A stretch of 64,000 nt of DNA from NCBI GenBank assembly GCA_021815205.1, contig JAKAHD010000004.1:4990-68989 (forward strand), written 5' to 3'. The translations under genes were made by a program, and so were the position numbers. Below the pieces are notes generated by a model. It did not search any database. It was not told the DNA's origin and was given only the letters and a program-made list of their open reading frames with translations. Of this stretch, positions 24,389 through 64,000 are shown piece after piece (position 1 is the stretch's first letter; each line of letters begins with the position of its first letter). Origin of the DNA: a bacterium. GTDB taxonomy: Bacteria > Patescibacteriota > Minisyncoccia > UBA6257 > GWB1-50-10.

Positions 24389-24389
24389 C

Positions 24390-25928: not shown

Positions 25929-25931
25929 CCC

Positions 25932-27617: not shown

Positions 27618-27629
27618 TAATCGCTTATT

Positions 27630-29973: not shown

Positions 29974-30615
29974 ATGGCGGAACCGACGCAAGCATCGCAA
30001 CAATTTGTAAAGATAAAAGAGATTCGAGACGGCATTCTCTATATGAAGGGTGGCGGCCTGAGGCAGGTGCTTATGGTGAGCGGCATCAACTTTGAGCTGA
30101 AATCTGAGGGCGAGCAGGCGACGATCTTGGGCACGTTCCAGAAGTTCTTGAACTCGCTCGATTTCGGCGTCCAGTTCTTCATCCATTCGCGGAAGACGAA
30201 TATTGAAAAATATCTCGCAAACATGGAGGAGTGTAAGAAGGGGGAGACGAATGAGCTTCTGCGCGTTCAGATCGAGGAGTACATCAACTTCATTCGCACG
30301 TTCGTCGAGGAGAACGCCATCATCAACAAAAGTTTCTTTATCGTAGTGCCCTACGATCCCGTCTCGCTTACCGCGGGGAAGGGCGGCTTTTTGGACGGGC
30401 TGTTCGGCAAGAAATCAAGCATATCGAAAGAACAGCAGAAGCAGGCAACGGACGCGGAGAACGTCGCCCAACTCAAGGAGCGCGCGACCCAGGTCATCGA
30501 GGGGCTCGCGGTTATGGATCTCCGCACGGTGCCTTTGGAGGACGAGGATCTCGTCGAGTTGTTCTACAACCTCTACAACCCGAAGCTTGTCGATAAAAAA
30601 GGAGTTACCGCATGA
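29974..30615 (+). CDS. virB4: VirB4/TrbE-family ATPase, N-terminal domain, encoded as a separate 213-aa gene
   Basis: Directly precedes the Walker-A-containing VirB4 part and overlaps it by ATGA. The combined length of 796 aa equals a typical VirB4. Confidence 0.55.
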   Translation: MAEPTQASQQFVKIKEIRDGILYMKGGGLRQVLMVSGINFELKSEGEQATILGTFQKFLNSLDFGVQFFIHSRKTNIEKYLANMEECKKGETNELLRVQIEEYINFIRTFVEENAIINKSFFIVVPYDPVSLTAGKGGFLDGLFGKKSSISKEQQKQATDAENVAQLKERATQVIEGLAVMDLRTVPLEDEDLVELFYNLYNPKLVDKKGVTA

Positions 30616-32363
30616 AAATAAATATTCCCAAAGCATACAAACCCGGAAGCGAAGACCTCCCGAACATCATCGCGCCCGCGGGGCTCGAAGTGAACGCGAA
30701 CTACCTGAAGCTCGGCGATTATTACGCGAAGACCTTTTTCGTATTCACGTATCCGCGTTATCTTTCCGCGGGGTGGTTCTCGGATATTATCAACTTACCC
30801 GCCATGATGGATATCTCGATTGTGATGTACCCGATGGATACCGCGCTCGCGCTCCGAAATCTCCGGAAGAAGGTGGCACAGATCGAGGCGGAGATCGGCG
30901 AGAAACAAGAGAAGGGGCTCGTGCGCGACCCCATGCTCGAGACCGCCTATGAGGATGTGGAAACGCTCCGCGATGCGCTCCAGCAGGCGCGTGAGCGTCT
31001 CTTCGAGGTAGGGGCGTATATCACGATCTATGCCGCAACCCTGAACGACCTCTCAGACCTCGAAAATAAGATTACGAACGCCTTGGAGAGCAAGCTGGTA
31101 TACATAAAACCCTCACTCTTTCGGCAAAGCGAGGGGTTGAACTCCGTTTTCCCGATTGCCTCGGATGAGCTTGCGGTCCGCACGCCCTTGAATACCGGCC
31201 CCGCCTCATCACTCTTCCCTTTTATCTCGCCCGACCTCACCTCCGAGAAAGGCATTCTCTATGGGGTGAATATGCACAATAACAGCTTGATTATCTTCGA
31301 CCGTTACTCGCTCGAAAACGCGAATATGACGATTTTTGCGAAGTCGGGTTCCGGGAAATCATACGCGGCAAAGCTCCAGATCCTCCGCTCGATGATGCTT
31401 GGCACGAACGTGATTGTGATTGACCCCGAGAACGAGTACGAGAACCTCGCAAATGCGATCGGCGGGAGTTACTTCAAAATTTCGCTTACTTCGCCGAGCC
31501 ACATCAACCCGTTCGATATTCCGATTATTCCCGAGGGAGACGAGCCGGCGGATGTATTTAAGTCGCACGTCCTCAATCTCACGGGGCTCATAAAACTCAT
31601 GCTCGGCGAGATTACTCCGGAAGAGGAATCGCTCCTTGACCGGGCAATCACCGAGACCTACGCCTCGCGCGATATCAACGCGGAGAACTTCGGCACCATG
31701 AAGGAGTTCAACCCGCCGCTCCTCGAGGACTTCCAGACGATTCTTATGAACACCGAAGGGGGGCGCGGGATCGGCCAGCGTCTTGATAAGTTCACCCACG
31801 GATCGTATTCCGGCTTCACAAACGCCCCGACGAATGTTGATATCAAGAACCGCCTCATCGTTTTCTCGATCCGCGACCTTGAGGAAGAGCTTCGCCCGAT
31901 CGCGATGTATATCATTCTGAATTTTGTGTGGAACATCATCCGCTCGGAACTGCGGCAACGAATGCTTGTGATCGATGAGGCGTGGCTTATGATGAAACAT
32001 AAGGACAGTGCCTCGTTCCTCTTCGGCCTCGTGAAGCGCGCGCGGAAATATTATCTCGGCGTCGTCACGATCACGCAGGATGTGGACGACTTCCTGAAAT
32101 CGGAGTATGGGAAGCCGATTATTACAAACTCCTCCCTCCAGTTGCTTCTGAAACAATCGCCAAGCTCGATTGATATTCTTACCAAAGCGTTCAGCCTCAC
32201 GGAGGGTGAAGCGGCGTTTCTCTTGCAGGCGGGGATAGGAGAAGGACTCTTCTTCGCGGGGCTGAAGCATGTTGCAATCAAGATCATTCCTTCGTACACG
32301 GAAGATCAGATTATTACCACAAACCCAGAACAAATCATGGAGATTAAGGGGCTCCAGCGATAA
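30612..32363 (+). CDS. virB4: VirB4/TrbE-family conjugal-transfer ATPase, C-terminal ATPase domain
   Basis: Walker A FAKSGSGKSYAAK, Walker B MLVIDEAWLMM and C-terminal VirB4 motifs (GVVTITQDVDD). 583 aa. Confidence 0.75.
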   Translation: MKINIPKAYKPGSEDLPNIIAPAGLEVNANYLKLGDYYAKTFFVFTYPRYLSAGWFSDIINLPAMMDISIVMYPMDTALALRNLRKKVAQIEAEIGEKQEKGLVRDPMLETAYEDVETLRDALQQARERLFEVGAYITIYAATLNDLSDLENKITNALESKLVYIKPSLFRQSEGLNSVFPIASDELAVRTPLNTGPASSLFPFISPDLTSEKGILYGVNMHNNSLIIFDRYSLENANMTIFAKSGSGKSYAAKLQILRSMMLGTNVIVIDPENEYENLANAIGGSYFKISLTSPSHINPFDIPIIPEGDEPADVFKSHVLNLTGLIKLMLGEITPEEESLLDRAITETYASRDINAENFGTMKEFNPPLLEDFQTILMNTEGGRGIGQRLDKFTHGSYSGFTNAPTNVDIKNRLIVFSIRDLEEELRPIAMYIILNFVWNIIRSELRQRMLVIDEAWLMMKHKDSASFLFGLVKRARKYYLGVVTITQDVDDFLKSEYGKPIITNSSLQLLLKQSPSSIDILTKAFSLTEGEAAFLLQAGIGEGLFFAGLKHVAIKIIPSYTEDQIITTNPEQIMEIKGLQR

Positions 32364-32366
32364 ACT

Positions 32367-32807
32367 ATGGCGGAACTCTCAAGGGCCGCCTCGGGGGCGG
32401 CATCAAAAACAAAAGGAAGCACGGGAAAGAGCGCCCCTGCACGTTCCGACGAGCCCATATCCGAAGTTACAAACAAGTTCGAGCTCTCCGAGATCGTGGT
32501 GGGAACAATCTACACTTTTACAACCGACGGTCTCTGCGCACTGCTTGATATCTTCACATTAGAATCATTTGCGGTAGCGAGTTGGGTGATACGAAACGGC
32601 GTCGCGGGCACCATCTGGATGTGGTTTTACGCGAAAAAAGATCCTCATGTAAAAAAAGCAGGACGACTCATTTTCAAAGGATTTGCGAACGCCACGCCGC
32701 TCTTTATTAACACGATTATGTTTCTCATTGAGGTATATATTCACAACCACCCCGAGAAGTTCGCGGCACTCGAGAAGGTCGCGGGAGCTACGGGCGGTAA
32801 GGCATAA
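32367..32807 (+). CDS. Hypothetical small membrane protein
   Basis: Two hydrophobic segments. Operon-internal position. Confidence 0.4.
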   Translation: MAELSRAASGAASKTKGSTGKSAPARSDEPISEVTNKFELSEIVVGTIYTFTTDGLCALLDIFTLESFAVASWVIRNGVAGTIWMWFYAKKDPHVKKAGRLIFKGFANATPLFINTIMFLIEVYIHNHPEKFAALEKVAGATGGKA

Positions 32808-32823
32808 GGTATAATATAAGAAA

Positions 32824-33522
32824 ATGGATTTTAGAAAATCAATCGGACTTATTGGATTAATGGGACTTATTGGTCTTATTGGCGTGTCTCACTCTTTTGC
32901 GCAAACCGCGCCTTCCGCCGCATCAAACGTCCAAGTTGTCATCACCTGGCAGGCGAATAATTACTTTCCGGCGGGATTCGAGGGAAAGTCGCTTCCCGCG
33001 CCTTATGCGCAGGTGGTCGCCTCCGTCGAACTTCTCGAAGACAATAAACTTGCCGATCTTTCTCAAGCCACAGTGAACTGGTTTGTGGACGACAAGTTCC
33101 AAAAATCGGGGGTGGGACTTAAAACATTTTCCTTCTATACCCAGCAGGAGGATTCCGGCTACGTGTCCGTGCGCGCGGTAATTGAGCTCCAGGGCGGGGG
33201 GGGCGCACGCGGCTCGCTTCAGATTCCCATAGTGGCGCCTACTTTGGTACTCTCCTACGCCGCTCCTTCAAACTCCGTAGCCGCAAACTCAAGCGTAACG
33301 CTCGCCGCAATCCCGTTCTCTTTTAACGTCTCATCCCCAAGCGATCTCACGTTCTTCTGGACCATCAATGGGGCTCAATCGAATGTTTCAGGAAACACCG
33401 TGAAGCTCCAACTCGGCGCCCCGACGCCCCTTGACCGGCTGCTCCAGATTTCGGTGAGCGCGCAGAATAACAAGAACCCGCTCGAGATCGGAAAAACAGC
33501 CGCAGCATTTCCCATACAATAA
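32824..33522 (+). CDS. Hypothetical secreted protein
   Basis: Signal peptide IGLIGLMGLIGLIGVSHSFAQ, encoded by the same 9-bp repeat in inverse orientation. Confidence 0.45.
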   Translation: MDFRKSIGLIGLMGLIGLIGVSHSFAQTAPSAASNVQVVITWQANNYFPAGFEGKSLPAPYAQVVASVELLEDNKLADLSQATVNWFVDDKFQKSGVGLKTFSFYTQQEDSGYVSVRAVIELQGGGGARGSLQIPIVAPTLVLSYAAPSNSVAANSSVTLAAIPFSFNVSSPSDLTFFWTINGAQSNVSGNTVKLQLGAPTPLDRLLQISVSAQNNKNPLEIGKTAAAFPIQ

Positions 33523-33544
33523 CAGAACATTAAAGAAAGATGTT

Positions 33545-35113
33545 ATGTTAAAAACAAAACTGAAAAATCTCACGCTAATCGTTTTCGTGTTCCTCGCGTT
33601 TTTTGCGGTTACCGCGATCAATACCGCCTACGCACAAAAGACCTTAAACCCGCCGCAACCGATCGTGAATGTGAATTTTCCGTGCCCGAGCCCCGGTTGC
33701 CAACCAATAACTTCCGACACCCAAGTTACCACCTATATTCAAACTTTCTACCAGTTCAGTTTATGGATCGGTGGCGCTTTGGCGCTTGGGATGATCGTCG
33801 CGGGAGGTATCGTGCGGATCCTATCCGCGGGAAGCCCTGACAAGATTCGCGAGGCGAACGATATGATCACCTCGGCGATCTTCGGTCTCCTCCTCCTTTT
33901 CGGCGCCTATCTTGTCCTCAACACTATAAATCCCCAGCTCACACTCTTGAAACTCCCTGCCGCGGGAGAAGCATCAACCGAAAAAGCGCAACTCACGGAA
34001 AAACTCTCCGACACAAACTGCGTCGCGCCGGGCGTCGAGGACTTCGCAAACATCCCTGTGTGGAACGGGGTAAAACAAATAAGCGTGTTGCATTGCATTT
34101 ACAGGCAAGAAGTTGGACACAATCCAGTTTCTAATGGTTTTGGGTTTGTGGCCGGCGATTACTATGCCGAAGATTTTGCGATTCCGAATGGTTCAATGGT
34201 GTGGAAATATCCGTATTTTACTGGAACGAGCCCCACCGCTACCGCGAAGTGTTTGGTGTACGCCTACAAGGAACCGGGGGTTGGCAAAACGGTGCAGATG
34301 ACTCCGCTCAATTCGAGTTTGAAGTTATGCACTCCGCTATATCAGAATTTGGGGGGGCCTGTATGTAAGGAGTGGCAGTTCTCCGCGAGAGAATCAAAAA
34401 CAAAGGATTTCAAAAACCCCGATCAGTTTGTTACCCGCACCTTCACCGATAAGACATTTCAAAGGGATCCTTTGAGTCCTCCAACCGTTCCTTCTTTCGC
34501 AAGGGACTACTGGGGAGATAATCCTATTTATTACTGCATAAACCCGGATGGGAGTGAAAATAAGAACACCTACTGCGCAAACGAAAACGCCGCTCCTTTC
34601 TGGACGTGCACGGTAGCGGAAAATCCGCCGTCAATACAGAACAAGGATACACCCATAGTGAGTCCGTGCGCCGACTGCGAAGACCTCCCCCCCAACTTTT
34701 CTGTGAACGGCAATCCGTGCGACAAGACGATTGATAACACCACCCTTAACTCCCACAAAGGGTACTGCAGACTTAATAAAAAGTTTACAGCCGATCTCGA
34801 TAAATTCAATAAGCTGATGCAAGCGGCAAAAAACTCTTCTGGGGGAACGGGAATTTCCTGGCAAATCACCGAGGCGTGGCCGAATACGGTGTATCACTCG
34901 TCCCCCTGCCACTACGACGGGCAGTGCGCCGACATCGCGCTCACCGGAAACGTAACGTGTGCGGACGTACAGAAAACAATGGATATTTTGAAATCGAGTG
35001 CGGGGGGCGGATTTTTTAGATCCCTCAACGAGTACGCTCGGCCGCCGCTTGTGTGTAATGCAGAGGGAAACTATAAAACCACCACAGGCAACAACATCCA
35101 TGTGGAGTGGTGA
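33545..35113 (+). CDS. Pilin-like (TrbC/VirB2-type) N-terminal module fused to a ~390-aa Cys-rich extracellular domain. Putative tip or adhesin pilin.
   Basis: Signal peptide ...NTAYAQ, a Cys/Pro-rich stretch, and two TM helices flanking AGSPDKIREAND (same layout as pilins 1-4). The large domain that follows has more than 20 Cys. Confidence 0.5.
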   Translation: MLKTKLKNLTLIVFVFLAFFAVTAINTAYAQKTLNPPQPIVNVNFPCPSPGCQPITSDTQVTTYIQTFYQFSLWIGGALALGMIVAGGIVRILSAGSPDKIREANDMITSAIFGLLLLFGAYLVLNTINPQLTLLKLPAAGEASTEKAQLTEKLSDTNCVAPGVEDFANIPVWNGVKQISVLHCIYRQEVGHNPVSNGFGFVAGDYYAEDFAIPNGSMVWKYPYFTGTSPTATAKCLVYAYKEPGVGKTVQMTPLNSSLKLCTPLYQNLGGPVCKEWQFSARESKTKDFKNPDQFVTRTFTDKTFQRDPLSPPTVPSFARDYWGDNPIYYCINPDGSENKNTYCANENAAPFWTCTVAENPPSIQNKDTPIVSPCADCEDLPPNFSVNGNPCDKTIDNTTLNSHKGYCRLNKKFTADLDKFNKLMQAAKNSSGGTGISWQITEAWPNTVYHSSPCHYDGQCADIALTGNVTCADVQKTMDILKSSAGGGFFRSLNEYARPPLVCNAEGNYKTTTGNNIHVEW

Positions 35114-38266: not shown

Positions 38267-39643
38267 ATGGAGAACAATGAGCTTTGGGAAAACGTCTTGG
38301 GAGACATAGAGCTTCAAATCTCCAGGCCAAATTTTTTGACGTGGCTGAAGCATAGCAAACTCTTGGATAAAAATGAGCGGGAAGGGATCGTGATGGTGGG
38401 ACTTCCGAATAATTTCGCGAAAGAGTGGGTAAAGAGCCGGTATCATAAGCTTATCCTTGGGTCGTTGCGAAACATCGATGGCTCAATAAAAAACGTTGAT
38501 TACACGGTGGTGAATCAAAACCCATTGCGGCCACCCCACACCGCGGCAAAGAATGCGCAAGAGGAGGCGTCGTTTTTGGAATCGCAATCACCACTTCTCG
38601 AACCGGAAGTGAATCCTAAAACCAACCTGAACCCAAGATACACCTTCGATTCGTTCGTGGTTGGCTCCTCGAATGAGATTGCGCACGCCGCGGCGGAGGC
38701 GGTGGCGAAGGATATTGGAAAAAAGTACAACCCCCTCTTCGTGTATGGGGGTGTGGGGCTTGGAAAAACACACCTTATTCAGGCGGTGGGGAATAGGGTC
38801 GCCGCACGACACAAACATGCGGTAAACGTGCTTTACGCCTCCTCCGAAAAATTCATTAATGATGTGGTGTGGGCGGTACGGAATAGGCGGATGGAAGACG
38901 TGAAGAAAAAATATCGCGACATTGATGTGTTGATTGTAGACGACATCCAGTTTATAGGAGGAAAGACGGCAACCGAACAGGAGTTTTTTTATACCTTCAA
39001 CACGCTTTATGAACACAATAAGCAAATAATCATTTCTTCTGATAGGCCGCCAAACTCCATTCCGACACTTGAGGAGCGTCTGCGATCGCGTTTTGAGGGG
39101 GGGATGATTGTGGATGTGGGGTACCCCGATTATGAAACGCGTCTTGCTATTTTGAAAACCAAGGCGCGTGAGCGGGGTTTTTTCATAGACGACAAGGTGC
39201 TCGAAGAGGTTGCCGCAAGGGTTCAAAAAAACATACGCGAACTTGAGGGGGTTTTAAATAAGGTGGTGTTTTATGAGCAGTGTAAAAATGAGAAGATAGA
39301 CGAAAAAAAGCTCAACGAGATAATAAGTGAAGCGGTGCAAGTAACTCCAAAAAACATTACCGCGAATGATGTAGTGAGAGCGGTGGCGGATTTTTTTGAG
39401 GTTGCTCCAAACGACATAACAAACCGCAGTAGGAAACAGGAGGTGGTGCAACCCCGCCAGATCGCGATGTATCTTCTTCGGGATATGTTAAAACTTTCCT
39501 ATCCGCATATCGGCGACCGCCTTGGAAAAAGGGACCATACCACCGCGATACACGCGTGTGAAAAAATCACAAAGGAATGCAGCCGTGATCCGGGATTAAA
39601 CCAAAAAATACTGCTTATAAAAGAACGTTTGTATAAGATGTGA
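38267..39643 (+). CDS. dnaA: Chromosomal replication initiator DnaA
   Basis: AAA+ Walker A GGVGLGKTHL. C-terminal DNA-binding domain (IGDRLGKRDHTTAIHA). Confidence 0.93.
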   Translation: MENNELWENVLGDIELQISRPNFLTWLKHSKLLDKNEREGIVMVGLPNNFAKEWVKSRYHKLILGSLRNIDGSIKNVDYTVVNQNPLRPPHTAAKNAQEEASFLESQSPLLEPEVNPKTNLNPRYTFDSFVVGSSNEIAHAAAEAVAKDIGKKYNPLFVYGGVGLGKTHLIQAVGNRVAARHKHAVNVLYASSEKFINDVVWAVRNRRMEDVKKKYRDIDVLIVDDIQFIGGKTATEQEFFYTFNTLYEHNKQIIISSDRPPNSIPTLEERLRSRFEGGMIVDVGYPDYETRLAILKTKARERGFFIDDKVLEEVAARVQKNIRELEGVLNKVVFYEQCKNEKIDEKKLNEIISEAVQVTPKNITANDVVRAVADFFEVAPNDITNRSRKQEVVQPRQIAMYLLRDMLKLSYPHIGDRLGKRDHTTAIHACEKITKECSRDPGLNQKILLIKERLYKM

Positions 39644-39821
39644 ATAGCGGGGTTGGTTCTTGTGGATGAAATACGCTCAAGGAAAAAACTGTCCACATAT
39701 CATAGAAAATTCCATAACGTTTTCCACAAATTATCCGAGGGTTTATATTTAAAATAAGCAAGAGCACAAAACAAGAAAATAAAGCGCGCCGTATTTTTGC
39801 ACACCCGCTACTACCACTACT
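39644..39821. other. Candidate oriC: dnaA-dnaN intergenic region with at least 3 DnaA boxes and an AT-rich stretch
   Basis: TGTGGATGA (8/9), TGTCCACAT, TTTTCCACA (8/9), TTATCCGAG, followed by TTTATATTTAAAATAAG. Confidence 0.5.
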
Positions 39822-40925
39822 ATGAAATTAATATTACTAAAAACTAACTTAGTAGACGCGTTAGGATCTGTGGAGCGTGCGGTAAACGAGAGTTCGAGTC
39901 TTCCAATTCTTAAACACGCGCTTGTGAAAACGGTTGGGGGGAAGATTCTTCTTGTGGGAACAAACCTCGAGCTCGCGATCGAGTACTCACTCCCCGGAAA
40001 AGTGATTGAAGGAGGCGAGATCGCGGTTCCTTTCTCGCTTTTTAACTCCCTTATTAAGAATCTTATGGCGGAGCGGGTCGCGATTGAGGAAAAAGACCGA
40101 AAAATAACCATCACCACCGATAATTACGAGGCGGTACTTCAAGGGCAAGACGCCGCGGAGTTTCCTATAATTCCATCTATTCAGAAACAAACACCACCTC
40201 TCTTGTTTCCTACGGAGCTCTTTCGCGGCGCCCTTCAAAATGTAATTGTCGCCGCCCAGTACTCCGATATACGCCCAGAGATAAGCGGAGTGTATTTTAA
40301 GTGCTCCGGTCGGATGATTACACTTGCCGCAACGGATGGGTTTCGCCTTGCTGAAGAAAAAATAAATCTCCCCCCCACCGCCTCTTCTCAAGACACCGCC
40401 GCGATTATTCCTCTTAAAACCGCCTCTGAAGCCCTGAAAATGTTTAAGGGATCAGAGGAGATAACCGTGTGCATCGAGCCGAACCAAATTCTTCTCTCTT
40501 CCCCAAACGAGAAAATAATCTCGCGCCTTATTGACGGATCATTTCCTGAGTATCATGCAGTAATTCCCCACCACCCCCCGCACGAAGTCACGGTTAATCG
40601 CGCGGAGTTTATAAACGCCGTTCGTCTTGCGAGCCCCTTTTCCGGAAGAGCGAACGATGTTATTGTGCGTCTCGGGGAAAATAAAAAAGTACTCGAGGTG
40701 TATTCGGTTGATAGCGCGCTGGGAGAGAGTTTATACAAGATCCCCGTGAAGGGCAAGGGAGAGCGTTTCTCAATCATCTTTAATTGGAAATATCTTCTTG
40801 ATGGACTCAAGGTGTTCTCGGGAAATGAGGTGACGCTTGGGGTTACCTCATCCGACCGGGCGGTGCTCCTCCAGAACCCGAAAGAGCCAAACCTTTTATA
40901 TGTGGTAATGCCTATTAAGGGGTAA
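39822..40925 (+). CDS. dnaN: DNA polymerase III beta sliding clamp
   Basis: 367 aa, three-domain clamp. Canonical position after dnaA. Confidence 0.88.
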   Translation: MKLILLKTNLVDALGSVERAVNESSSLPILKHALVKTVGGKILLVGTNLELAIEYSLPGKVIEGGEIAVPFSLFNSLIKNLMAERVAIEEKDRKITITTDNYEAVLQGQDAAEFPIIPSIQKQTPPLLFPTELFRGALQNVIVAAQYSDIRPEISGVYFKCSGRMITLAATDGFRLAEEKINLPPTASSQDTAAIIPLKTASEALKMFKGSEEITVCIEPNQILLSSPNEKIISRLIDGSFPEYHAVIPHHPPHEVTVNRAEFINAVRLASPFSGRANDVIVRLGENKKVLEVYSVDSALGESLYKIPVKGKGERFSIIFNWKYLLDGLKVFSGNEVTLGVTSSDRAVLLQNPKEPNLLYVVMPIKG

Positions 40926-56431: not shown

Positions 56432-57778
56432 ATGGTAAGAAATGTTCAGTATAATCTCATAGAGAAGATCAAAAGAGTCCCCATCTTCAAATTTCTATGC
56501 CGCATACCCTGGCTCTTGGACGCTTATCATTATCTCCTCGCGTTTCTGGGGGCGGTATGGTACGGCTTTCCAAGCAGGGAACTTTTCGTGGTCGGCGTTA
56601 CGGGCACGAAGGGTAAGTCGAGCACGGTCGAGATTTTGAACGCGACACTCGAAGCGGCCGGAAAGAAAACGGCGCTTTTGGGCTCCGTGCGGAAGAAGAT
56701 TCTTAATGCAACCGCAAAAGAGAAACCGGGAAATACGATGCCGGGGAGGTTCGCAATCCAGCGGTTTCTCCACGAAGCCGTACGTGCGGGCGCGGAGTAC
56801 GCGATTATGGAAGTGACCTCGGAGGGGATTATGCAGCACCGCCACCGCTTCATTGATTGGGACGCGGCATTTTTCTTAAATCTCGCGCCCGAGCACATCG
56901 AGCGGCACGGCTCATTCGAAAAGTATCGAGCGGCAAAGGTCTCATTCTTCTCTTCCCTCGCGCACTCCCGAAAAAAACAAAAATACTTCTTTGTGAACGA
57001 GGACGATCATAATGTGAGCTTTTTTTCCGACGCGGCGCACGCAGTGCGCGGAAACGCGCTTGTGCCGTTTTCCCACGCGATATTTTTGGAGCGCGCCGCG
57101 GCGCACGGTATGAATTTCAAGGATCCCGCAGTGCGGCGCTCGATAAACGAGTGGCTCATACCAGATTTCAACTTTATGAACGCCGCCGCCGCCGAGGCGT
57201 TTGCGGAGACCCGGCAGATTCCGTGGGAGGTGTTTCTTCGCGCGCTTCGCGCCTTCAAGGGCGTGCCGGGGCGGTGTGAGTTCGTGCAAAAAACACCTTT
57301 CGCGGTCGTCGTGGACTATGCGCACACGCCGGATTCCTTGAAGGCGATTTACGAGGCGGTACGCCCCGAACGACTTACGGGAAGGCGGGGATCCTTGATC
57401 TGCGTCTTGGGGTCCGCGGGAGGGGGAAGAGACAAATGGAAGCGGCCGGAGATGGGGAAGATCGCCGCGGAGTATTGTGATGCGATTGTTTTAACAAACG
57501 AAGATCCCTTTAACGAAAACCCCGACACAATTCTCGATGAGATCGAGAAAGGGGCGCGGGAGACCAAAGATGCCCGTTTAAATCAGAAGAATATTTTCAA
57601 GATCCTTGACCGCAGGGAAGCGATTAAAAAAGCGCTCTCGCTCGCGAAGGAAGGGGACACGATAGTGATGACTGGGAAAGGGAGTGAGTCCACGATCCGC
57701 ATGGAACACGGGAGAACAATCCCATGGAACGAGCGGCAGGTGGCGGAAGAGTTATTGAAGGAGAAAGCGGAAGAATAG
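56432..57778 (+). CDS. murE: Mur ligase family protein, MurE-like (UDP-MurNAc-tripeptide synthetase)
   Basis: ATP-binding P-loop VVGVTGTKGKSST. Central and C-terminal Mur ligase domains (NLAPEHIERHGSFEKYRAAK). Confidence 0.6.
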   Translation: MVRNVQYNLIEKIKRVPIFKFLCRIPWLLDAYHYLLAFLGAVWYGFPSRELFVVGVTGTKGKSSTVEILNATLEAAGKKTALLGSVRKKILNATAKEKPGNTMPGRFAIQRFLHEAVRAGAEYAIMEVTSEGIMQHRHRFIDWDAAFFLNLAPEHIERHGSFEKYRAAKVSFFSSLAHSRKKQKYFFVNEDDHNVSFFSDAAHAVRGNALVPFSHAIFLERAAAHGMNFKDPAVRRSINEWLIPDFNFMNAAAAEAFAETRQIPWEVFLRALRAFKGVPGRCEFVQKTPFAVVVDYAHTPDSLKAIYEAVRPERLTGRRGSLICVLGSAGGGRDKWKRPEMGKIAAEYCDAIVLTNEDPFNENPDTILDEIEKGARETKDARLNQKNIFKILDRREAIKKALSLAKEGDTIVMTGKGSESTIRMEHGRTIPWNERQVAEELLKEKAEE

Positions 57779-57781
57779 CAA

Positions 57782-58789
57782 TTGAGTACGAAATTTCCCA
57801 TGGAATTTAATTCAAATATTGGTAACCCGAACGACCCGCCATTTGAATTCTCCGAAAATGGGGTCCCGCTGGTTGCGAACACTGAGGGCAAGAAGATCGA
57901 AAGCGGACAGTTCAAAGAACTATTGCGTCACATGCAACAGGAAGACGCCCTAAAAATTTACAAATCAATTAAGAGACTTGAGGAGGGTGAGTTTAAAAAC
58001 AGCCAGCTTCAGGATGAGAATGGTGAGCTTCGTATTATGTGGCATGGAAGTCCCCGAAAATTCGAAGAATTCAGATCTGACGCGAAGGGAGAATATAGAT
58101 GGAGGAACGAGGGAATACATTTCTCCAGCTCGGAAGAAGTAGTGGAGCAATACGCGGACAAGGCGTACTCCGCATTGCGGACCGCATTGTATGCCATCGC
58201 ATCGCAATCGTTTCAACTTGAGGAGGGGAAGCCCCTCACCAACGAGCAAGTTCAAAAGGCGAAGGAGATTTATAACGGAATTATGGAGAACGTGCGAGAG
58301 AAGAAGGAACAAAGCCCATTCTATCGGAAGGAATATGTATGGAAGAGTGGTGTAAAAACGGAAGAGCGGGATCCCGCTGCTGAGAGTATAGAATATGGAA
58401 AAATAAGACTTGGTATTGAGTGGATATCCGAAATATTCGGCGGTGAGTTGCCAACAAAAGAAAATAGTATTTTTGACCAAAGAGAGGGCGTGTATGTCGG
58501 GAGAAATATTGGGAAATATTTCTACGCCGCGGTTTTAGATATCGAAAAGCCGTTCCGTGCAGAGACAAAAGACATTGATCATGGTTTTTCGATGGGGGAA
58601 GAATCAAAAGAAAAAGAAGACACCGATGGTACCATCCTATTACATCCCGAGGGAATTGTGGGAATGGGAGGATTGCTGATCTCCGGTACGGAGGGCACGA
58701 TTTCCGCCGCTATTTTTGATGAGAAGAAAATAAAGATTTTGGGGTGTAAGAGCGGAGGAAAATTTGAAGTGAGTAAGGAGTTTATTTAA
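57782..58789 (+). CDS. Hypothetical acidic protein (335 aa), lower GC
   Basis: ORF with no recognisable motif. The stop of murE is followed 3 nt later by TTG or ATG at 57782. Confidence 0.4.
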   Translation: MSTKFPMEFNSNIGNPNDPPFEFSENGVPLVANTEGKKIESGQFKELLRHMQQEDALKIYKSIKRLEEGEFKNSQLQDENGELRIMWHGSPRKFEEFRSDAKGEYRWRNEGIHFSSSEEVVEQYADKAYSALRTALYAIASQSFQLEEGKPLTNEQVQKAKEIYNGIMENVREKKEQSPFYRKEYVWKSGVKTEERDPAAESIEYGKIRLGIEWISEIFGGELPTKENSIFDQREGVYVGRNIGKYFYAAVLDIEKPFRAETKDIDHGFSMGEESKEKEDTDGTILLHPEGIVGMGGLLISGTEGTISAAIFDEKKIKILGCKSGGKFEVSKEFI

Positions 58790-59216: not shown

Positions 59217-60572
59217 ATGAAATTAACTTTCTGCGGAGGCGCCGGAGTAGTGACCGGTGCGAACTATCTTTTGGAGGTCGGCGACAAGAAATTTTTGATT
59301 GACTGCGGGCTCGAGCAAGGAGAGACATTTTCGTCCGACAGGAACTTCAAGGAGTTTCCATACGATCCCGCATCAATTGATGCGCTTTTCGTGACGCATG
59401 CGCACATCGATCATGTGGGACGGATTCCCCAGCTTGTGAAGGCGGGATTCAAGGGCGCGATCTATTCGACGCCGCCCACCAAAGATTTCGCGCGGCTCCT
59501 CTTGCTTGATTCGGAGCATCTCTTGGGCGAGGAGGCGGAGCAGCGGCATGTGCCGCCGCTCTACGGAGACGAGGACGTCGCGCATGCGATGAGCGTGTGG
59601 CGCACGGTGCGGTATCACGGGCCATTTTCCGCGGGGCCGCTCACGGTGGAATTTTATGACGCGGGACATATTTTGGGTTCAAGCTCGATTTGTGTTACCG
59701 CGGAAGGGAAAAAGATTGTTTTTTCGGGCGATCTTGGAAACACGCCCGCGCCGTTCATTCATCCAATCGAATATATTCCGAGCGCCGACTACGCGCTTAT
59801 CGAGTCCGCCTACGGCAACCGCATGCACGAGCGGGCAGAGGAGCGACAGGAGATGGTCCGCGAGGCGGTCGAGGAAACGGTCCGCGACGGGGGCGCGCTC
59901 GTTATTCCCGCCTTCGCGATGGAGCGGACGCAGGAGATGATCTTCGAGCTGAACGAGCTCGCCGAAAGCGGCAAGATCCCGAAGGTGCCGGTCTTTATCG
60001 ATAGCCCGCTCGCGATCAAACTTACCGAGGTGTATAAGAAGTACGCGGGCGACAAAGATTATTTTAACGACGAAGCAAGAGCGCTTCTTGCAAAAGGCGA
60101 CTCGATCTTCGATTTTCCGGGTCTCACACAGACCCCCACCAAGGAAGAATCGAAGCGCATCAACGAGGTGCCACCGCCGAAGATCGTGATTGCGGGCGCG
60201 GGAATGTCGAACGGAGGAAGAATTTTACACCACGAGATCCGTTGCCTGCCCGACCCCAAGAGCACGCTTCTTATTGTGGGGTACCAGGCGCGCGGATCGA
60301 TGGGCCGCGTGATCCAGGAGGGCGCGAAATCGGTCGAGATTTTCGGGGAACAAGTGCCCGTGCGATGTCGGGTGCGCGTCGTGAGCGGCTACTCGGCACA
60401 CGCCGACCAGCCGCAGCTTATGGAATGGGTGTCTTCGATGCGCGGGAGCGTCAAAAAGATATTCGTCGTGCAAGGAGACCCAGACGAATCCATGGCGCTT
60501 GCGGAAAAAATAAAAAGCGATCTACGACTCGAAGCGGAGGTCCCTACTCTTGGTGAGTCGGCGGTGTTATAA
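59217..60572 (+). CDS. Beta-CASP family MBL-fold ribonuclease (RNase J / CPSF73-like)
   Basis: MBL motifs LIDCG, HAHIDHVG and D/H residues. Beta-CASP region. 451 aa. Confidence 0.7.
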   Translation: MKLTFCGGAGVVTGANYLLEVGDKKFLIDCGLEQGETFSSDRNFKEFPYDPASIDALFVTHAHIDHVGRIPQLVKAGFKGAIYSTPPTKDFARLLLLDSEHLLGEEAEQRHVPPLYGDEDVAHAMSVWRTVRYHGPFSAGPLTVEFYDAGHILGSSSICVTAEGKKIVFSGDLGNTPAPFIHPIEYIPSADYALIESAYGNRMHERAEERQEMVREAVEETVRDGGALVIPAFAMERTQEMIFELNELAESGKIPKVPVFIDSPLAIKLTEVYKKYAGDKDYFNDEARALLAKGDSIFDFPGLTQTPTKEESKRINEVPPPKIVIAGAGMSNGGRILHHEIRCLPDPKSTLLIVGYQARGSMGRVIQEGAKSVEIFGEQVPVRCRVRVVSGYSAHADQPQLMEWVSSMRGSVKKIFVVQGDPDESMALAEKIKSDLRLEAEVPTLGESAVL

Positions 60573-60579
60573 TCTTCTT

Positions 60580-61251
60580 ATGCAAAAGAAAAAAACAGAG
60601 GGACGCAAAATCGTGAAAACGCCGAAGATCCTGAAATTGCCCGCGGTGTCGCGCGGGGCGCATCAGGTTCATGGTTACCATTTGAAGTATAAGATCTGCG
60701 TTTCAGGAGCTGCGGAGACGGGGCACTGCGCGAAGGACGCGATCGAGAAAGCGGAGCAGATCGGGCGAGAAGTCGCGCGGCGCGGGCTTATTCTCGTGAC
60801 GGGCGCGACGATCGGGATGCCCTACTGGGCCGCGAAGGGGGCGAAAGAAGAAGGGGGGTTCGTGATCGGGCTTTCGCCGGCGGCCTCGAAGGTCGCGCAC
60901 GTGAAGACCTACCACCTCCCGCTCGATTATCACGATGTGATTGTCTATACCGGATTCGATTATGCGGGGAGGAATCTGCTTCTCACGCGTTCGGCGGACG
61001 CCATCGTTACGCTCTGCGGGAGGACGGGAACCTTAAACGAGTTCACAATCGGGTTTGAAGATCATAAGCCCCAGGGGGTGCTCGAAGGCACGGGCGGCAC
61101 GGCGGATATGATCCGCGGCATCTTGGAGAGCGCGCATCGCGGACTCGGAAAGGTGGTCTTCTCGAGAGACCCTTCTGATCTCATTGATAAGGTAGTGCGC
61201 CTCATTCACGAAGAGGAGGTGAAGAATGGAGTAAATGGGAAGATATTGTAA
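60580..61251 (+). CDS. LOG/TIGR00725-like Rossmann-fold nucleotide-binding protein
   Basis: ILVTGATIGM...GRTGTLNEF pattern resembles SLOG/LOG-family proteins. Confidence 0.45.
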   Translation: MQKKKTEGRKIVKTPKILKLPAVSRGAHQVHGYHLKYKICVSGAAETGHCAKDAIEKAEQIGREVARRGLILVTGATIGMPYWAAKGAKEEGGFVIGLSPAASKVAHVKTYHLPLDYHDVIVYTGFDYAGRNLLLTRSADAIVTLCGRTGTLNEFTIGFEDHKPQGVLEGTGGTADMIRGILESAHRGLGKVVFSRDPSDLIDKVVRLIHEEEVKNGVNGKIL

Positions 61252-61402: not shown

Positions 61403-62713
61403 ATGAGAAAAAAACTCGGAGCGTGGTGCCTCTATCTTATTGTATTTTCAATTCCCATCGGAACGAAGAAATATCTTTCTTCATTCGTGCCGTTCGTGAG
61501 CGACTACAACTCGGTCTTCTTGTTCGGCCTCGACGTACTTATCCTGCTCTTTCTCGTGTTTTGGGGATTCAAAGCGATCAGGCGGGATCGCTTCGCAAAA
61601 TTCTTCGCGGCATTCTCCGCCGCAGGGCTCCTCCCAATTCTCTGGTCGCCCGACAAGGGGCTCGTGCTTTATGCGTGGGCGCATCTTACACTCTTCATCT
61701 GCTTCGCGCTCGCGGTCGCGGGCTTCTTTCGCGAGAAAAAAGCCGCGCTCAAGGGAACGCTCTGGGCGCTCGGAAGCTCCGCGGTGCTTCAGTCGTTCAT
61801 CTCCTTCGCACAGTTTCGGAGCCAGACGAGCGTCGGCCTTCGCCTCCTCGGCGAATCGGTGATTGATGCGGCGACGAAGGGTGTCGCGAGAATCAACGTT
61901 GACGGCCTCTCGTTCCTCCGCGCCTACGGTACGATGCCGCACGCGAACATTCTTGCCGCATTCTTGGTAATGGGACTCGCGGCATTCATCGGCCTCTTTC
62001 TCGTTTCGCATGAAAAGAAGGTGTTGCACGCCACCTCGCTTATCGGCGTGTTCGTGACTATCGGCGGACTTCTTTTTACCTTCTCCCGTTCCGGATGGAT
62101 TGTCGCCGCGATAAGCGTCGTCGCGCTCCTTATCTATGCATTTTTCAAACAACCGCTTCGCCGCCGCGCGTTCGCGCTCCTTGTCACGTGCGTACTCGCC
62201 CTCACGCTTCTCTTTGTGCAGTTCGGGTGGCTTGCATTCCCTCGCGCGCACTTCACCGCCGAGGAGGACTCGGTAACGCATCGCGTGGGGTATGACATGA
62301 TCGGTCTCAACTTGTTTCTCAAAAATCCCTTGGGCGTCGGGTGGGGCGATCAGGTTCTCGCGGCGGAACGCGAGGGGCTCTATGCGCGAGAAGGGCTTGG
62401 TCTCCCGTGGCAGGAACAGCCGATCCATAATATCTACCTGCTCATCGCGACGGAGGCGGGGATACAGGGCGTTGCGGCGCTCCTTGTCGCGCTTTTCTTC
62501 GGACTCAAGCTTGTATTCTCGCGGTTCAGGAGAATGGATGCGGAAGCGCGCGATGAATTTTGGATCGCGCTTGTCCTACTTTTGGGGTCGCTCCTCTTCG
62601 GGCTTGTGGATCACTTCCCGTGGGACCTCGAGGCGGGCCAGGCAATGCTCTGGCTCTCCTTGGGAATCGTGATGGGCCTCGCGGAACGCGCATCCGTTTC
62701 TTCAGCCCGATAA
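61403..62713 (+). CDS. O-antigen ligase (WaaL)-like polytopic membrane protein
   Basis: About 12 TM helices and a Wzy_C-like loop (FTFSRSGWIVAAISVVAL...). Confidence 0.5.
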   Translation: MRKKLGAWCLYLIVFSIPIGTKKYLSSFVPFVSDYNSVFLFGLDVLILLFLVFWGFKAIRRDRFAKFFAAFSAAGLLPILWSPDKGLVLYAWAHLTLFICFALAVAGFFREKKAALKGTLWALGSSAVLQSFISFAQFRSQTSVGLRLLGESVIDAATKGVARINVDGLSFLRAYGTMPHANILAAFLVMGLAAFIGLFLVSHEKKVLHATSLIGVFVTIGGLLFTFSRSGWIVAAISVVALLIYAFFKQPLRRRAFALLVTCVLALTLLFVQFGWLAFPRAHFTAEEDSVTHRVGYDMIGLNLFLKNPLGVGWGDQVLAAEREGLYAREGLGLPWQEQPIHNIYLLIATEAGIQGVAALLVALFFGLKLVFSRFRRMDAEARDEFWIALVLLLGSLLFGLVDHFPWDLEAGQAMLWLSLGIVMGLAERASVSSAR

Positions 62714-62877: not shown

Positions 62878-62954
62878 GTCCTTGTAGCTCAACTGGATAG
62901 AGCGCTTCCCTCCGAAGGAAGAGGTTAGAGGTTCAAATCCTCCCAAGGACACCA
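62878..62954 (+). tRNA. tRNA-Arg (anticodon CCG), CCA encoded
   Basis: Acceptor GTCCTTG/CAAGGAC, anticodon loop CTCCGAA, T-arm GGTTCAAATCC, 3' ACCA. 77 nt. Confidence 0.8.
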
Positions 62955-63126
62955 CATAAAAAGAATCAACACCCAAATCGACCAAGAGATGGTATTCGGG
63001 CGAGTCGTTTTTCTGAAGATATCCCTGATGTAGGGGATAACGGCGAGCATAGCGATCACGCCGCCGGATTCATAATACTGATTATACACTTTACTTTTCT
63101 CTCCAATTGTATATCATATGTGATAT

Positions 63127-64000
63127 ATGGCAAAATCGCATAAAACGACCCAGCAGAAAATAGGGTATTTCATCAAAAATCTCCGCGAAGAGCGGGGAAT
63201 GACGCAAGCGGAGTTTGCGAAGGCCTTAGGCACCTCTCAGTCCGCGGTCGCGCGGATGGAGGCGGGGAGACAGAACTTCAGCACGAATGAGCTTCAGAAG
63301 ATCAGTAGAATCCTCGAACGGAGCATCGTCTCCTTGTCGGAGTCGCTCGATTTTGAGGTGCGGGGCGGGCGGAAACTCTCGGGAACGATCGCGACGAACT
63401 TCTCGAAGAATGGCTCGGTGGCACTTCTCTGCGCCGCGCTTTTAAATAAGAACAAAACAACGCTTCACGGCATTTCCCGCATCGAGGAGGTGTACCGTCT
63501 CATCGAAATTATGGAGAGCATCGGCGTTTCCGTGAGGTGGATCATGAAGAACACGGTGGAAGTTACGCCGCCCGCGAAGTTCTCGCTCCAAGCGCTCGAC
63601 AAAGATGCCGCCTCGCGCATCCGCTCGAGTTTGATGCTTATCGGGCCCCTTACACATTGCGAGTCCGAGTTCAGTCTGCCGCACGCAGGCGGATGTAAGA
63701 TGGGAAACCGCACGATTGCGGCGCACCGCTATGGGCTCGAAAATCTTGGCGTTTCGATCGTGACAAAAAGCGACTATTACAAGATTGCGGCAAAGGAGAT
63801 GCACCCTTCGGAGGTTATAATGTACGAGGCGAGCGACACCGCGACGAACAACGTCCTCATGGCGGCGGCATTGATCCCCGGCGCGACGACGATCCGTTTC
63901 GCGCCGCCGAACTACCAGGTACAGGAGCTCTGCTTCTTCCTCGAAACGATGGGCGTGAAGATCGATGGTGTAGGCACGACAACGCTCACGGTACACGGCA
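63127..64000 (+). CDS. murA: UDP-N-acetylglucosamine 1-carboxyvinyltransferase (MurA) with an N-terminal ~70-aa XRE-type HTH extension. 3'-partial, continuing beyond the window end.
   Basis: Hand translation: HTH QKIGYFIKNLREERGMTQAEFAKALGTSQSAVARMEAGRQNFS. MurA core then follows: RKLSGTIATNFSKNGSVALLCAALL and catalytic-Cys loop LPHAGGCKMGNRT. No stop in frame before nt 64000. Confidence 0.7.
   Translation, partial: MAKSHKTTQQKIGYFIKNLREERGMTQAEFAKALGTSQSAVARMEAGRQNFSTNELQKISRILERSIVSLSESLDFEVRGGRKLSGTIATNFSKNGSVALLCAALLNKNKTTLHGISRIEEVYRLIEIMESIGVSVRWIMKNTVEVTPPAKFSLQALDKDAASRIRSSLMLIGPLTHCESEFSLPHAGGCKMGNRTIAAHRYGLENLGVSIVTKSDYYKIAAKEMHPSEVIMYEASDTATNNVLMAAALIPGATTIRFAPPNYQVQELCFFLETMGVKIDGVGTTTLTVHG

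Follow-up and report, generated by a model that had tools for sequence, protein, structure and literature searches.

The window analysed here, a stretch of 64,000 nucleotides of bacterial DNA, ends within an open reading frame (ORF) that joins a helix-turn-helix (HTH) domain of the XRE family to MurA (UDP-N-acetylglucosamine 1-carboxyvinyltransferase, EC 2.5.1.7), the fosfomycin target that catalyses the committed step in peptidoglycan synthesis. We asked if this HTH-murA gene is genuine, if its product is likely to be a working MurA, and what a putative DNA-binding domain might do at the N-terminus of such an enzyme. The following parts of the ORF bear on these questions.

63127 to 64000, plus strand: HTH-murA ORF, 3'-partial (291 of ~507 codons), from ORF reading, profile matches and homologues
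63172 to 63327, plus strand: XRE/Cro-C1 HTH domain (Pfam HTH_3, aa 16-67), from the Pfam profile match
63232 to 63276, plus strand: recognition-helix segment TSQSAVARMEAGRQN (aa 36-50), from invariant residues in homologues
63325 to 63351, plus strand: short linker, aa 67-75 (SIVSLSESLDF region), from the HTH to the first MurA strand, from alignment and model
63352 to 64000, plus strand: N-terminal half of the MurA domain (aa 76-291), from the NCBIfam murA match
63406 to 63411, plus strand: Lys94-Asn95 (E. coli MurA Lys22-Asn23), from alignment to solved MurA chains, invariant in homologues
63694 to 63711, plus strand: catalytic loop from Cys190 (63694-63696; E. coli Cys115) to Arg195 (63709-63711; E. 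coli Arg120), from alignment

An in-frame TGA at 63121-63123 makes the ATG at 63127-63129 the earliest possible start of this ORF, from which 291 codons run without a stop to the window end; upstream of this ATG there is no space for a Shine-Dalgarno sequence. The translated ORF matched the Pfam families HTH_3 (PF01381) at aa 16-67 (E = 1.7e-15; 57.2 bits against a gathering cut-off of 23) and EPSP_synthase (PF00275) at aa 78-291 (E = 1.5e-21), as well as the NCBIfam murA model TIGR01072 at aa 76-291, corresponding to model positions 4-218 (E = 5.7e-49). The original prediction of a ~70-aa Cro/C1-type HTH that continues without interruption into MurA is therefore borne out by the reading frame and by both profile searches. 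The segment GMTQAEFAKALGTSQSAVARMEAGRQNFS occupies aa 24-52 of the product, and the MurA part does contain the predicted catalytic-cysteine loop, with GGCKMG at aa 188-193 and its Cys190 aligned to E. coli Cys115. The window holds the N-terminal ~215 residues of MurA, and features of the remainder were taken from P0001, a homologue of 507 aa with 86% identity.

The concern that a frameshift or an assembly join might lie near position 63340 was not substantiated, as the junction (aa 67-75) is in frame, aligns without gaps to homologues of 61-86% identity, and contains two invariant residues, Ser73 and Asp75. In an AlphaFold model of P0001, the first MurA strand begins at residue 73 and is preceded by a non-helical stretch (residues 64-72; block-mean pLDDT 66-80), in agreement with a linker at this point. 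The fusion is a common property of its relatives: PF01381 and PF00275 occurred together in all 120 of the best protein clusters (63-86% identity; 483-510 aa, with one 360-aa partial), and a fusion of ~505 aa was found in each of the 80 best GTDB loci, from Paceibacteria/Parcubacteria and from independent assemblies. Relatives are encoded at no fewer than 560 GTDB species loci, and the alignments of the best 80 begin at query residue 1-24 in every case. Among complete ORFs in related loci, 73 of 75 encode 480-515 aa, one encodes 527 aa and one stops at 233. The same fusion is present in RefSeq genomes of cultured Nonomuraea (Actinomycetota). A small separate HTH gene followed by murA, the arrangement expected of relatives if a sequencing error had created the fusion, was not seen; upstream of four unfused relatives, we found neither an HTH gene nor the palindrome described below. 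The claim that this architecture is not standard holds for the MurA of textbooks and fails for public data, in which the fused protein is common under plain names (MurA, or "helix-turn-helix domain-containing protein"). Our search of open-access papers and bioRxiv found no paper on an HTH-MurA fusion, and no solved structure with both domains was found, as matches in the PDB cover MurA alone. In a crude neighbor-joining tree, fused, unfused and cysteine-less forms made up one clade separate from canonical MurA; this tree fits either a single ancient fusion with losses or repeated fusions, and the fusion may have arisen in either way.

Within the window, Lys94, Asn95, Cys190 and Arg195 are all in place, and the catalytic cysteine is present in 79 of 79 readable related loci. 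Throughout the catalytic clade, the equivalents of K22, N23, C115, R120, D305, R331, R371 and R397 are conserved without change; those of Asp305, Arg371 and Arg397 lie past the window end and are invariant in 32 homologues. Full-length P0001 scored 315 against the subfamily model NF006873, above its cut-off of 297, with model positions 4-417 of 419 matched, while the window fragment, the first half of MurA, scored 171.5 bits against this model. Against the strict murA equivalog TIGR01072, full-length P0001 scored 301, below the cut-off of 392.7, and full-length homologues carry an alanine at the position of E. coli Asp369. A single-chain AlphaFold2 model of P0001 (pLDDT 85.8) predicts the two-domain EPSP-synthase/MurA fold, of which the window encodes only the first half, and the top Foldseek matches of this model in the PDB were all MurA (target-normalised TM 0.82-0.91). 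No second murA was found within 4 kb in 80 related loci, or by Pfam scans of 20 other ORFs of the window. Given the conserved catalytic residues, HTH-MurA is best read as a predicted active MurA.

The HTH of the P0001 model consists of four helices (residues 8-22, 27-34, 38-45 and 53-63; block-mean pLDDT 66-89). Seven residues of the recognition-helix segment (T36, Q38, R43, E45, G47, Q49 and N50) show no variation among 32 homologues, and the motif TSQSA[VI].R[IM]E.G.QN is retained even in paralogues of 28-40% identity. Mean pairwise identity was 0.655 for the HTH, 0.707 for MurA and 0.735 for helix 2-turn-helix 3. From this conservation, we conclude that the HTH is kept under selection.

A candidate binding site for this domain lies immediately upstream of the gene, where we recognized the following elements.

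63110 to 63127, either strand: 18-bp palindrome TATATCAtatgTGATATA (16-bp core 63111-63126), predicted operator of the HTH, from conservation and position
63090 to 63095, plus strand: -35-like hexamer TTTACT of the predicted murA promoter, a consensus match only
63112 to 63117, plus strand: -10-like hexamer TATCAT within the left half of the palindrome, from a consensus scan
63106 to 63133, minus strand: promoter-like site TTGCCA, 16 nt, TACAAT (10 of 12 matches), overlapping the palindrome, from a consensus scan

The palindrome has the consensus (T)ATATCAyATrTGATAT(A), 16-18 bp in length with half-site centers 10 bp apart, and is unique in the 64-kb window at up to three mismatches (expected number, 0), with no further copies of the operator found there. 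It occupies the spacer and -10 region of sigma70-like promoters. On the plus strand of the window, TTTACT and TATCAT are separated by 16 nt and match the consensus at 9 of 12 positions, which is a consensus match and not a mapped promoter; the closest relatives have TTGACx or TTTACT, likewise 15 nt from the palindrome core. With TATCAT placed 9 nt upstream of the ATG, the transcript would have little or no 5' leader. The minus-strand site faces the remnant of a divergent membrane-protein gene, which together with a tRNA-Arg gene lies upstream of HTH-murA; the tRNA was the only known RNA element found in this upstream region, and murB is absent from the 64-kb window.

Of the 80 sequences compared, made up of the window and 79 related loci, 75 have the core palindrome upstream of the fused gene, and three of the five that lack it have less than 20 nt of upstream sequence. 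Positions A1, T2, T4, C5, G12, A13, A15 and T16 are invariant among 71 tabulated sites of related loci, and in 602 kb of such loci, sites with at most one mismatch occurred exclusively upstream of the fused gene. A divergent murB adjoins the fused gene in 36 of the ~75 related loci examined, with the palindrome common to both genes, and in many relatives a gap of 9-14 nt separates the start of murB from the far edge of the operator. A metagenome-wide scan for the exact 18-mer returned 126 sites, 84 of them without such an HTH nearby and mostly without a -35-like hexamer; these 84 are probably chance matches or repeats, and a regulon is not definable from a scan in which two thirds of the occurrences are away from any such HTH. 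We also considered a recognition code based on covariation of helix and operator. The helix SS[IV]P pairs with a C3/G14 operator (Fisher, 1e-10), an association confounded by phylogeny. The pairing that it predicts did not hold for L211 and L212, which combine an AIN helix with A3/T14, or for Nonomuraea, which combines AVN with C3/G14. Because of this confounding and the failed prediction, we discarded covariation as evidence and rejected such a code.

The palindrome accompanies the fused gene beyond the Paceibacteria/Parcubacteria. In Nonomuraea, whose DNA has ~70% GC, ATCTCATATGTGAGAT is located 13 nt before the ATG of the fused gene, and an AT-rich 16-mer in such DNA is not a generic promoter. 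It is likewise kept in paralogues of 28-40% identity that have lost MurA catalytic residues and retain both recognition helix and operator. Cys115, Arg120 and Arg371 are missing from three of these (P0133, P0145 and P0129), and Arg397 from two of them as well. All three have an unfused murA close by, in L082 and L086 as the immediate divergent neighbor and in L087 at the far end of the divergent operon. In these cysteine-less paralogues the palindrome heads operons with ddl, Mur-ligase genes or both; at two of the three loci a divergent unfused murA-murB pair shares it. These dead paralogues suggest that the MurA fold is able to act as a ligand sensor.

The metagenome-wide scan also turned up Gp49-XRE toxin-antitoxin operons, which carry a promoter-operator cassette of the HTH-murA type (TTGACA, 1-3 nt, TATATCATATATGATATA, TAAT). 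The antitoxins of these operons have the helix TTQSN[IV]ARMEAGQQN, and one of them is 51% identical to the window HTH over 59 residues. Like the window HTH, HigA-like XRE antitoxins (Gp49 is PF05973, of the RelE/ParE type) contain the recognition motif T[ST]QS.[VI]ARME.G.QNFT; they pair with a toxin, whereas the window HTH is covalently joined to an enzyme and lacks the ~35 N-terminal residues of the antitoxin. No toxin gene lies beside the window HTH, as its upstream neighbors are the tRNA-Arg gene and the gene remnant, and downstream it runs into MurA. On these similarities, the window HTH is homologous to Gp49-XRE antitoxins and is not itself an antitoxin, and the HTH together with its cassette appears to have common ancestry with them. 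This link points to the recruitment of a toxin-antitoxin repressor-operator module into core metabolism.

The suggestion in the original prediction that the fusion could couple cell-wall precursor synthesis to transcriptional (auto)regulation gains strong comparative support from a promoter-overlapping palindrome found with nearly every instance of the fusion, in different phyla and at different GC contents, and further support from the operator being often common to a divergent murB and from the dead paralogues. We propose that HTH-MurA is probably a bifunctional trigger enzyme, an active MurA whose HTH binds the palindrome and represses its own promoter. The HTH presumably binds this site as a dimer; MurA is normally monomeric, which bears against paired HTHs on a symmetric site. 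The palindrome would sit on the gene's own core promoter, with the -10 element in the left half-site and the ATG directly after the right half-site, so the mRNA would be leaderless or near-leaderless. Bound HTH-MurA would exclude RNA polymerase from this promoter, and the resulting negative autoregulation would allow the amount of the committed-step enzyme to set its own transcription and, in many relatives, that of murB from the same operator.

Several other explanations of this locus can be weighed against this proposal. Errors or pseudogenes do arise in metagenome-assembled genomes of this kind, as the premature stop at aa 233 in the relative L045 indicates, and one could suppose that a frameshift, a sequencing error or an assembly join had made one ORF of an HTH gene and murA; the probability of this is negligible, as such an artefact is ruled out by the conserved, gap-free junction in independent assemblies and by the fusion in cultured Nonomuraea. 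We also regard it as unlikely that the HTH is a vestigial or protein-contact module and the palindrome a mere promoter element or the site of another factor. XRE folds do sometimes serve protein contacts, as in RodZ, whose HTH binds MreB, and the -10-like sequence inside the palindrome means that part of the palindrome's conservation could be promoter conservation. Against this explanation, the recognition helix is the best-conserved stretch of the HTH domain and stays invariant even where the enzyme part decays, while the palindrome follows the HTH into actinomycete DNA, is missing before unfused murA relatives, and precedes toxin-antitoxin operons encoding a sister HTH, for which autoregulation by the antitoxin is the rule in type II systems.

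The protein could instead be primarily a transcription factor whose MurA-like domain serves only as a ligand sensor or dimerisation scaffold, with catalysis left to a separate, unfused MurA. Such an arrangement does exist in the relatives P0133, P0145 and P0129, and only 64 kb of the host genome is visible. We consider it quite improbable for the window protein, which like its whole clade retains every catalytic residue checked, has no second murA in the regions scanned, and belongs to a clade in which murB partners the fused gene itself. Sequence by itself does not tell repression from activation, and the HTH might also act at the murA promoter as an activator or a dual regulator. Activator sites are normally upstream of the -35 element; the palindrome takes up the space between -35 and -10 or lies over the -10 and start point, the classical position for steric repression, which makes activation or dual control very improbable.

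Returning to an autorepressing MurA, we also consider whether its DNA binding responds to metabolites. A more speculative idea is that a ligand bound to the MurA domain (UDP-GlcNAc, PEP or UDP-MurNAc) modulates DNA binding. In an extended form of this idea, which we put forward tentatively and hold to be less probable than not, the open or closed state of MurA, under the influence of UDP-GlcNAc, PEP and UDP-MurNAc feedback, would control HTH dimerisation or operator binding, and the precursor pool would directly set murA and murB transcription through a single operator within a divergent, leaderless promoter of ~35 nt. A toxin-antitoxin system would have been the source from which both operator and DNA-binding module were captured, and duplication with loss of catalysis would have given rise to pseudoenzyme regulators that sense UDP-sugars and govern murA-murB, ddl and Mur-ligase operons. 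If true, this metabolite-gated scheme would provide genome-reduced CPR bacteria with a minimal regulatory circuit.

To our knowledge, the control of MurA described so far is post-translational (UDP-MurNAc feedback, ClpCP/ReoM proteolysis and LpxC coupling), with none through a built-in DNA-binding domain. A MurA with its own repressor domain and an operator on a joint murA-murB promoter would, if confirmed, govern cell-wall homeostasis by a logic that is both new and very compact. What is new here is the 16-18 bp palindrome on the core promoter, abutting the start codon. The fusion is widespread in Paceibacteria/Parcubacteria, which as far as we know are uncultured and genome-reduced, with few transcription factors and almost no regulatory circuit understood. 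The operator and recognition helix constitute a directly testable protein-DNA pair, and the Nonomuraea homologue offers a culturable host.

HTH-MurA is homologous end to end with canonical MurA (E. coli/Enterobacter cloacae; PDB 1UAE and 3KQJ), at 27-30% identity and with the same two-lobed fold (TM up to 0.91), and has equivalents of the canonical residues Lys22, Asn23, Cys115, Arg120, Asp305, Arg371 and Arg397. It differs in an additional 75 N-terminal residues of HTH and linker, in ~13 more residues in the MurA body, in the alanine replacing Asp369 and in its score under the TIGR01072 cut-off. RodZ resembles HTH-MurA as a protein of the cell-wall machinery with an N-terminal XRE-type HTH; in RodZ a transmembrane segment follows the MreB-binding HTH, whereas the window HTH is followed by 9 residues and the first MurA beta-strand and is accompanied by a conserved operator. 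With a soluble enzyme in place of a transmembrane segment, HTH-MurA does not belong with the RodZ-like shape proteins. Regulators of the BzdR type combine an XRE HTH with a shikimate-kinase-like domain that is non-catalytic and binds the inducer, and the window ORF has a weak match to NCBIfam PRK08154 over the HTH part only. With an N-terminal XRE HTH on an enzyme-derived domain, BzdR is the best analogue of the cysteine-less HTH-"MurA" paralogues, while the window protein, unlike BzdR, retains all MurA catalytic residues checked. BirA (the biotin ligase/repressor), NadR and PutA each combine a pathway enzyme and a DNA-binding domain in one polypeptide, and the corepressor of BirA is an intermediate of its reaction. 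HTH-MurA shares this one-chain arrangement, and its predicted operator would place it at promoters of its own pathway genes; it differs from these proteins in its enzyme, its pathway and its class of DNA-binding domain, which is XRE in HTH-MurA and winged HTH or ribbon-helix-helix in BirA, NadR and PutA.

The reading frame at the end of the window is preceded by an in-frame TGA (63121-63123, + strand), begins at ATG 63127 and stays open for 291 codons to the window end, which places only the first half of MurA inside the window. We recovered in this ORF the peptides quoted in the original prediction of an HTH joined to MurA, with Cys190 of GGCKMG encoded by codon 63694-63696, and both domains were recognized by profile searches:

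aa 16-67, + strand: XRE/Cro-C1 HTH (HTH_3; Pfam, E 1.7e-15)
aa 78-291, + strand: EPSP-synthase/MurA fold (Pfam)
aa 76-291, + strand: murA, model positions 4-218 (NCBIfam, E 5.7e-49)

We obtained 5385 matches among 5.8 billion protein clusters, and the best 120 of these all carry both domains (63-86% identity; 483-510 aa, save one 360-aa partial). Two proteins of 483 aa each, P0077 and P0119, begin at internal Met25, their start probably being mis-called. GTDB species representatives include at least 560 loci that code for a relative; in all of the best 80, titled Uhr-, Yanofsky-, Zambryski- and Nomurabacteria, Paceibacteria and Parcubacteria, the match starts at query residue 1-24, and these loci are therefore all fused. 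Start codons are well defined because a stop a few codons 5' of the start closes the ORF in most related loci, and 73 of 75 complete ORFs encode 480-515 aa. One other encodes 527 aa and one ends at aa 233 (L045, 139-840; a frameshift, pseudogene or MAG error). We rejected a frameshift or assembly join as the origin of the fusion, since the homologue alignment is gap-free at the junction, with Ser73 and Asp75 invariant, and the best 120 protein matches and best 80 GTDB loci are all fused. As fused relatives are so many across databases, the window gene belongs, judged by sequence, to a large Patescibacteria family; the GC content of the window is 51.5%.

We assessed the enzyme half using P0001, the closest full-length homologue (507 aa), which is 86% identical to the window fragment. 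It aligns end to end to MurA models (it passes the cut-off of NF006873 and falls short of the stricter equivalog cut-off of TIGR01072), is ~27-30% identical to solved MurA chains, and keeps the equivalents of E. coli Lys22, Asn23, Cys115, Arg120, Asp305, Arg371 and Arg397; the Cys115 equivalent is kept in 79 of 79 readable related loci. An AlphaFold2 model of P0001 (pLDDT 85.8) shows the HTH as four helices, followed by a 9-residue linker and a MurA fold, and superposes on MurA structures with target-normalised TM values of 0.82-0.91. From these residues and this model, the MurA half of the fused protein looks functional. At E. coli position 369, Asp is replaced by Ala throughout the fused clade (P0001 'PPALRPA'); the Asp at this position in canonical MurA has been linked to resistance against fosfomycin.

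The gene is preceded by a palindrome:

63110-63127, directly 5' of the ATG: 18-bp palindrome TATATCAtatgTGATATA, predicted operator

This is the sole such site in the 64-kb window, where none is expected, and the same palindromic element is found upstream in nearly all related loci. Of 80 sequences (the window and 79 related loci), 75 contain its 16-bp core when up to 3 mismatches are allowed, and three of the five core-less sequences have <20 nt of upstream sequence. Positions A1, T2, T4, C5, G12, A13, A15 and T16 are invariant among 71 related-locus sites, and across 602 kb of related-locus DNA, sites with at most one mismatch occur solely upstream of the fused gene. Both in the window and in its closest relatives, the core is preceded at 15 nt by a hexamer, TTGACx or TTTACT, a -10-like TATCAT falls within the left half-site, and the right half-site abuts the ATG; Nomurabacteria-type loci have TTGCAa, 17 nt with the core inside, and TATAAT, with the ATG 11-13 nt past the core. 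As both geometries leave no room for a leader, we infer that the murA transcripts are leaderless or nearly so, and we predict repression through promoter occlusion. Helix-operator covariation in the Nomurabacteria-type loci was dropped as evidence when an out-of-clade test failed.

In 36 related loci the divergent upstream gene is murB (NCBIfam NF000755, 354 bits vs. a cut-off of 277). The murB start codon lies 9-14 nt from the far side of the core in 20 of the 21 loci with N-terminal-motif confirmation, a spacing that holds also where the murA ATG sits further off, and the palindrome also overlaps a promoter-like site on the minus strand, which has an extended -10. Given this arrangement, one predicted operator would control both genes at murB-paired loci, and with them the first two steps of UDP-MurNAc synthesis. 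A search of the window found no murB; the divergent gene there is what remains, after deletion, of a membrane-protein gene found intact in the related locus L002:

Window 62878-62954, + strand: tRNA-Arg(CCG)
Window 62925-63089, - strand: 54-aa remnant ORF, N-terminal part of the 190-aa membrane-protein gene
L002 3353-3925, - strand: intact membrane-protein gene, 190 aa, 69% identity to the window remnant over 35 aa

The window and L002 share the order tRNA-Arg, membrane protein, HTH-murA; ~680 nt are gone in the window, where the remnant ORF runs into tRNA-Arg. Just upstream of the tRNA and murA are genes for a beta-CASP/metallo-beta-lactamase RNase, a SLOG cluster-4 (LOG-like) protein and a Wzy_C O-antigen-ligase-like membrane protein (59217-61251 and 61403-62713, +). 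A toxin-like ART-PolyVal ADP-ribosyltransferase-domain protein (57782-58789, +) directly follows a Mur ligase gene (56432-57778, +). Further away, TraG-type P-loop ATPase and type IV secretion pilin genes (30612-35113 and 38267-40925, +), near several large ORFs without a Pfam match (23522-29243), are followed by dnaA and dnaN, which puts the probable replication origin near 38 kb.

Cys115 is missing from seven more fused representatives (28-39% identity), most of which have also lost further catalytic residues such as Arg120; all seven retain TSQSA[VI].R[IM]E.G.QN. We examined six of their loci, in most of which Arg120 and/or Arg397 are also gone:

Cys-less HTH-'MurA' paralogues
L082 8001-9503
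L086 5211-6740
L087 3498-5003
L084 8001-9554
L211 1474-2952
L212 6001-7467, downstream of murB and a RelA/SpoT-like gene

Three of the six are close to an unfused murA: at L082 and L086 the paralogue is directly divergent from one that is itself paired with murB, and at L087 the unfused murA ends a divergent Mur-ligase operon. These three paralogues share a transcription unit with ddl and/or a Mur ligase. An operator-like site was present at all six loci, comprising a core with at most one mismatch within 19 nt of the paralogue's own start at four, a weaker variant (2 mismatches) 10 nt upstream at L086, and a 1-mismatch site before the first gene of the paralogue's operon at L084. The Cys-less paralogues look like pseudoenzyme regulators, which suggests that the MurA fold is able to serve as a sensor. 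Mainly because the operator co-occurs with the HTH, and helix and operator outlast catalysis, we predict that the HTH functions in DNA binding, with the palindrome as its site.

Scanning of metagenomes for exact copies of the 18-mer gave at least 126 sites. This HTH family is encoded within 1.5 kb of 42 of the 126 listed sites and transcribed away from them (~24 HTH-MurA, ~18 small XRE proteins); the remaining 84, mostly without a -35-like hexamer, look unrelated. In at least 10 cases the small XRE protein is encoded by the second gene of a Gp49 (PF05973)-XRE operon with the same cassette (TTGACA, 1-3 nt, palindrome, TAAT), the palindrome lying between TTGACA and TATAAT:

L113, L114, L140, L143, L174, L176, L177, L187, L196, L199 (metagenome): Gp49 (RelE/ParE-type) toxin and XRE antitoxin operons

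For L140, the one antitoxin tested, identity to the window HTH is 51% over 59 residues. The fused gene thus has its HTH and operator in common with Gp49-XRE operons, and they were plausibly captured from such autoregulated toxin-antitoxin operons.

A 50%-identity representative search identified a fused protein in cultured Nonomuraea (Actinomycetota), 51% identical to P0001, that represents a cluster of 246 sequences, which go under the names MurA or 'helix-turn-helix domain-containing protein' in RefSeq. Its gene has ATCTCATATGTGAGAT 13 nt 5' of the ATG, in ~70%-GC DNA:

L081 6001-7530 (Nonomuraea sp. NEAU-A123, JAHFZZ010000002.1): HTH-MurA with catalytic residues

A Formyl_trans_C+ECH_1 gene precedes it and a phage-type integrase comes after it; further upstream, on the other strand, is an AMP-binding gene. 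This copy of HTH-MurA may be accessory or mobile, and it may have been transferred between phyla. Among unfused relatives, four (46-54% identity) had no operator site, and P0126 is a catalytic MurA by sequence with a degenerate N-terminal HTH.

The best supported reading is that a predicted active MurA would repress its own promoter through its N-terminal HTH, along with murB where the two genes adjoin, with homeostasis of the committed step as the outcome. Less certain is a putative ligand gating of DNA binding; PDB entry titles include MurA complexes with UDP-MurNAc and with a Cys115-PEP adduct. The original proposal of (auto)regulation gains an operator that is conserved at the promoter and travels with the HTH, while DNA binding itself is predicted from sequence. 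Fused proteins match generic MurA and generic HTH models in NCBIfam, with none spanning both domains, and a full-text search of open-access papers and bioRxiv found no paper on the fusion. Public data contain fused sequences in abundance, so this architecture has gone unannotated, not unseen. By function, HTH-MurA groups with BirA, NadR and PutA, which are trigger enzymes; by descent, it combines MurA with a HigA-like XRE antitoxin; and its catalytically dead paralogues resemble BzdR-type regulators.
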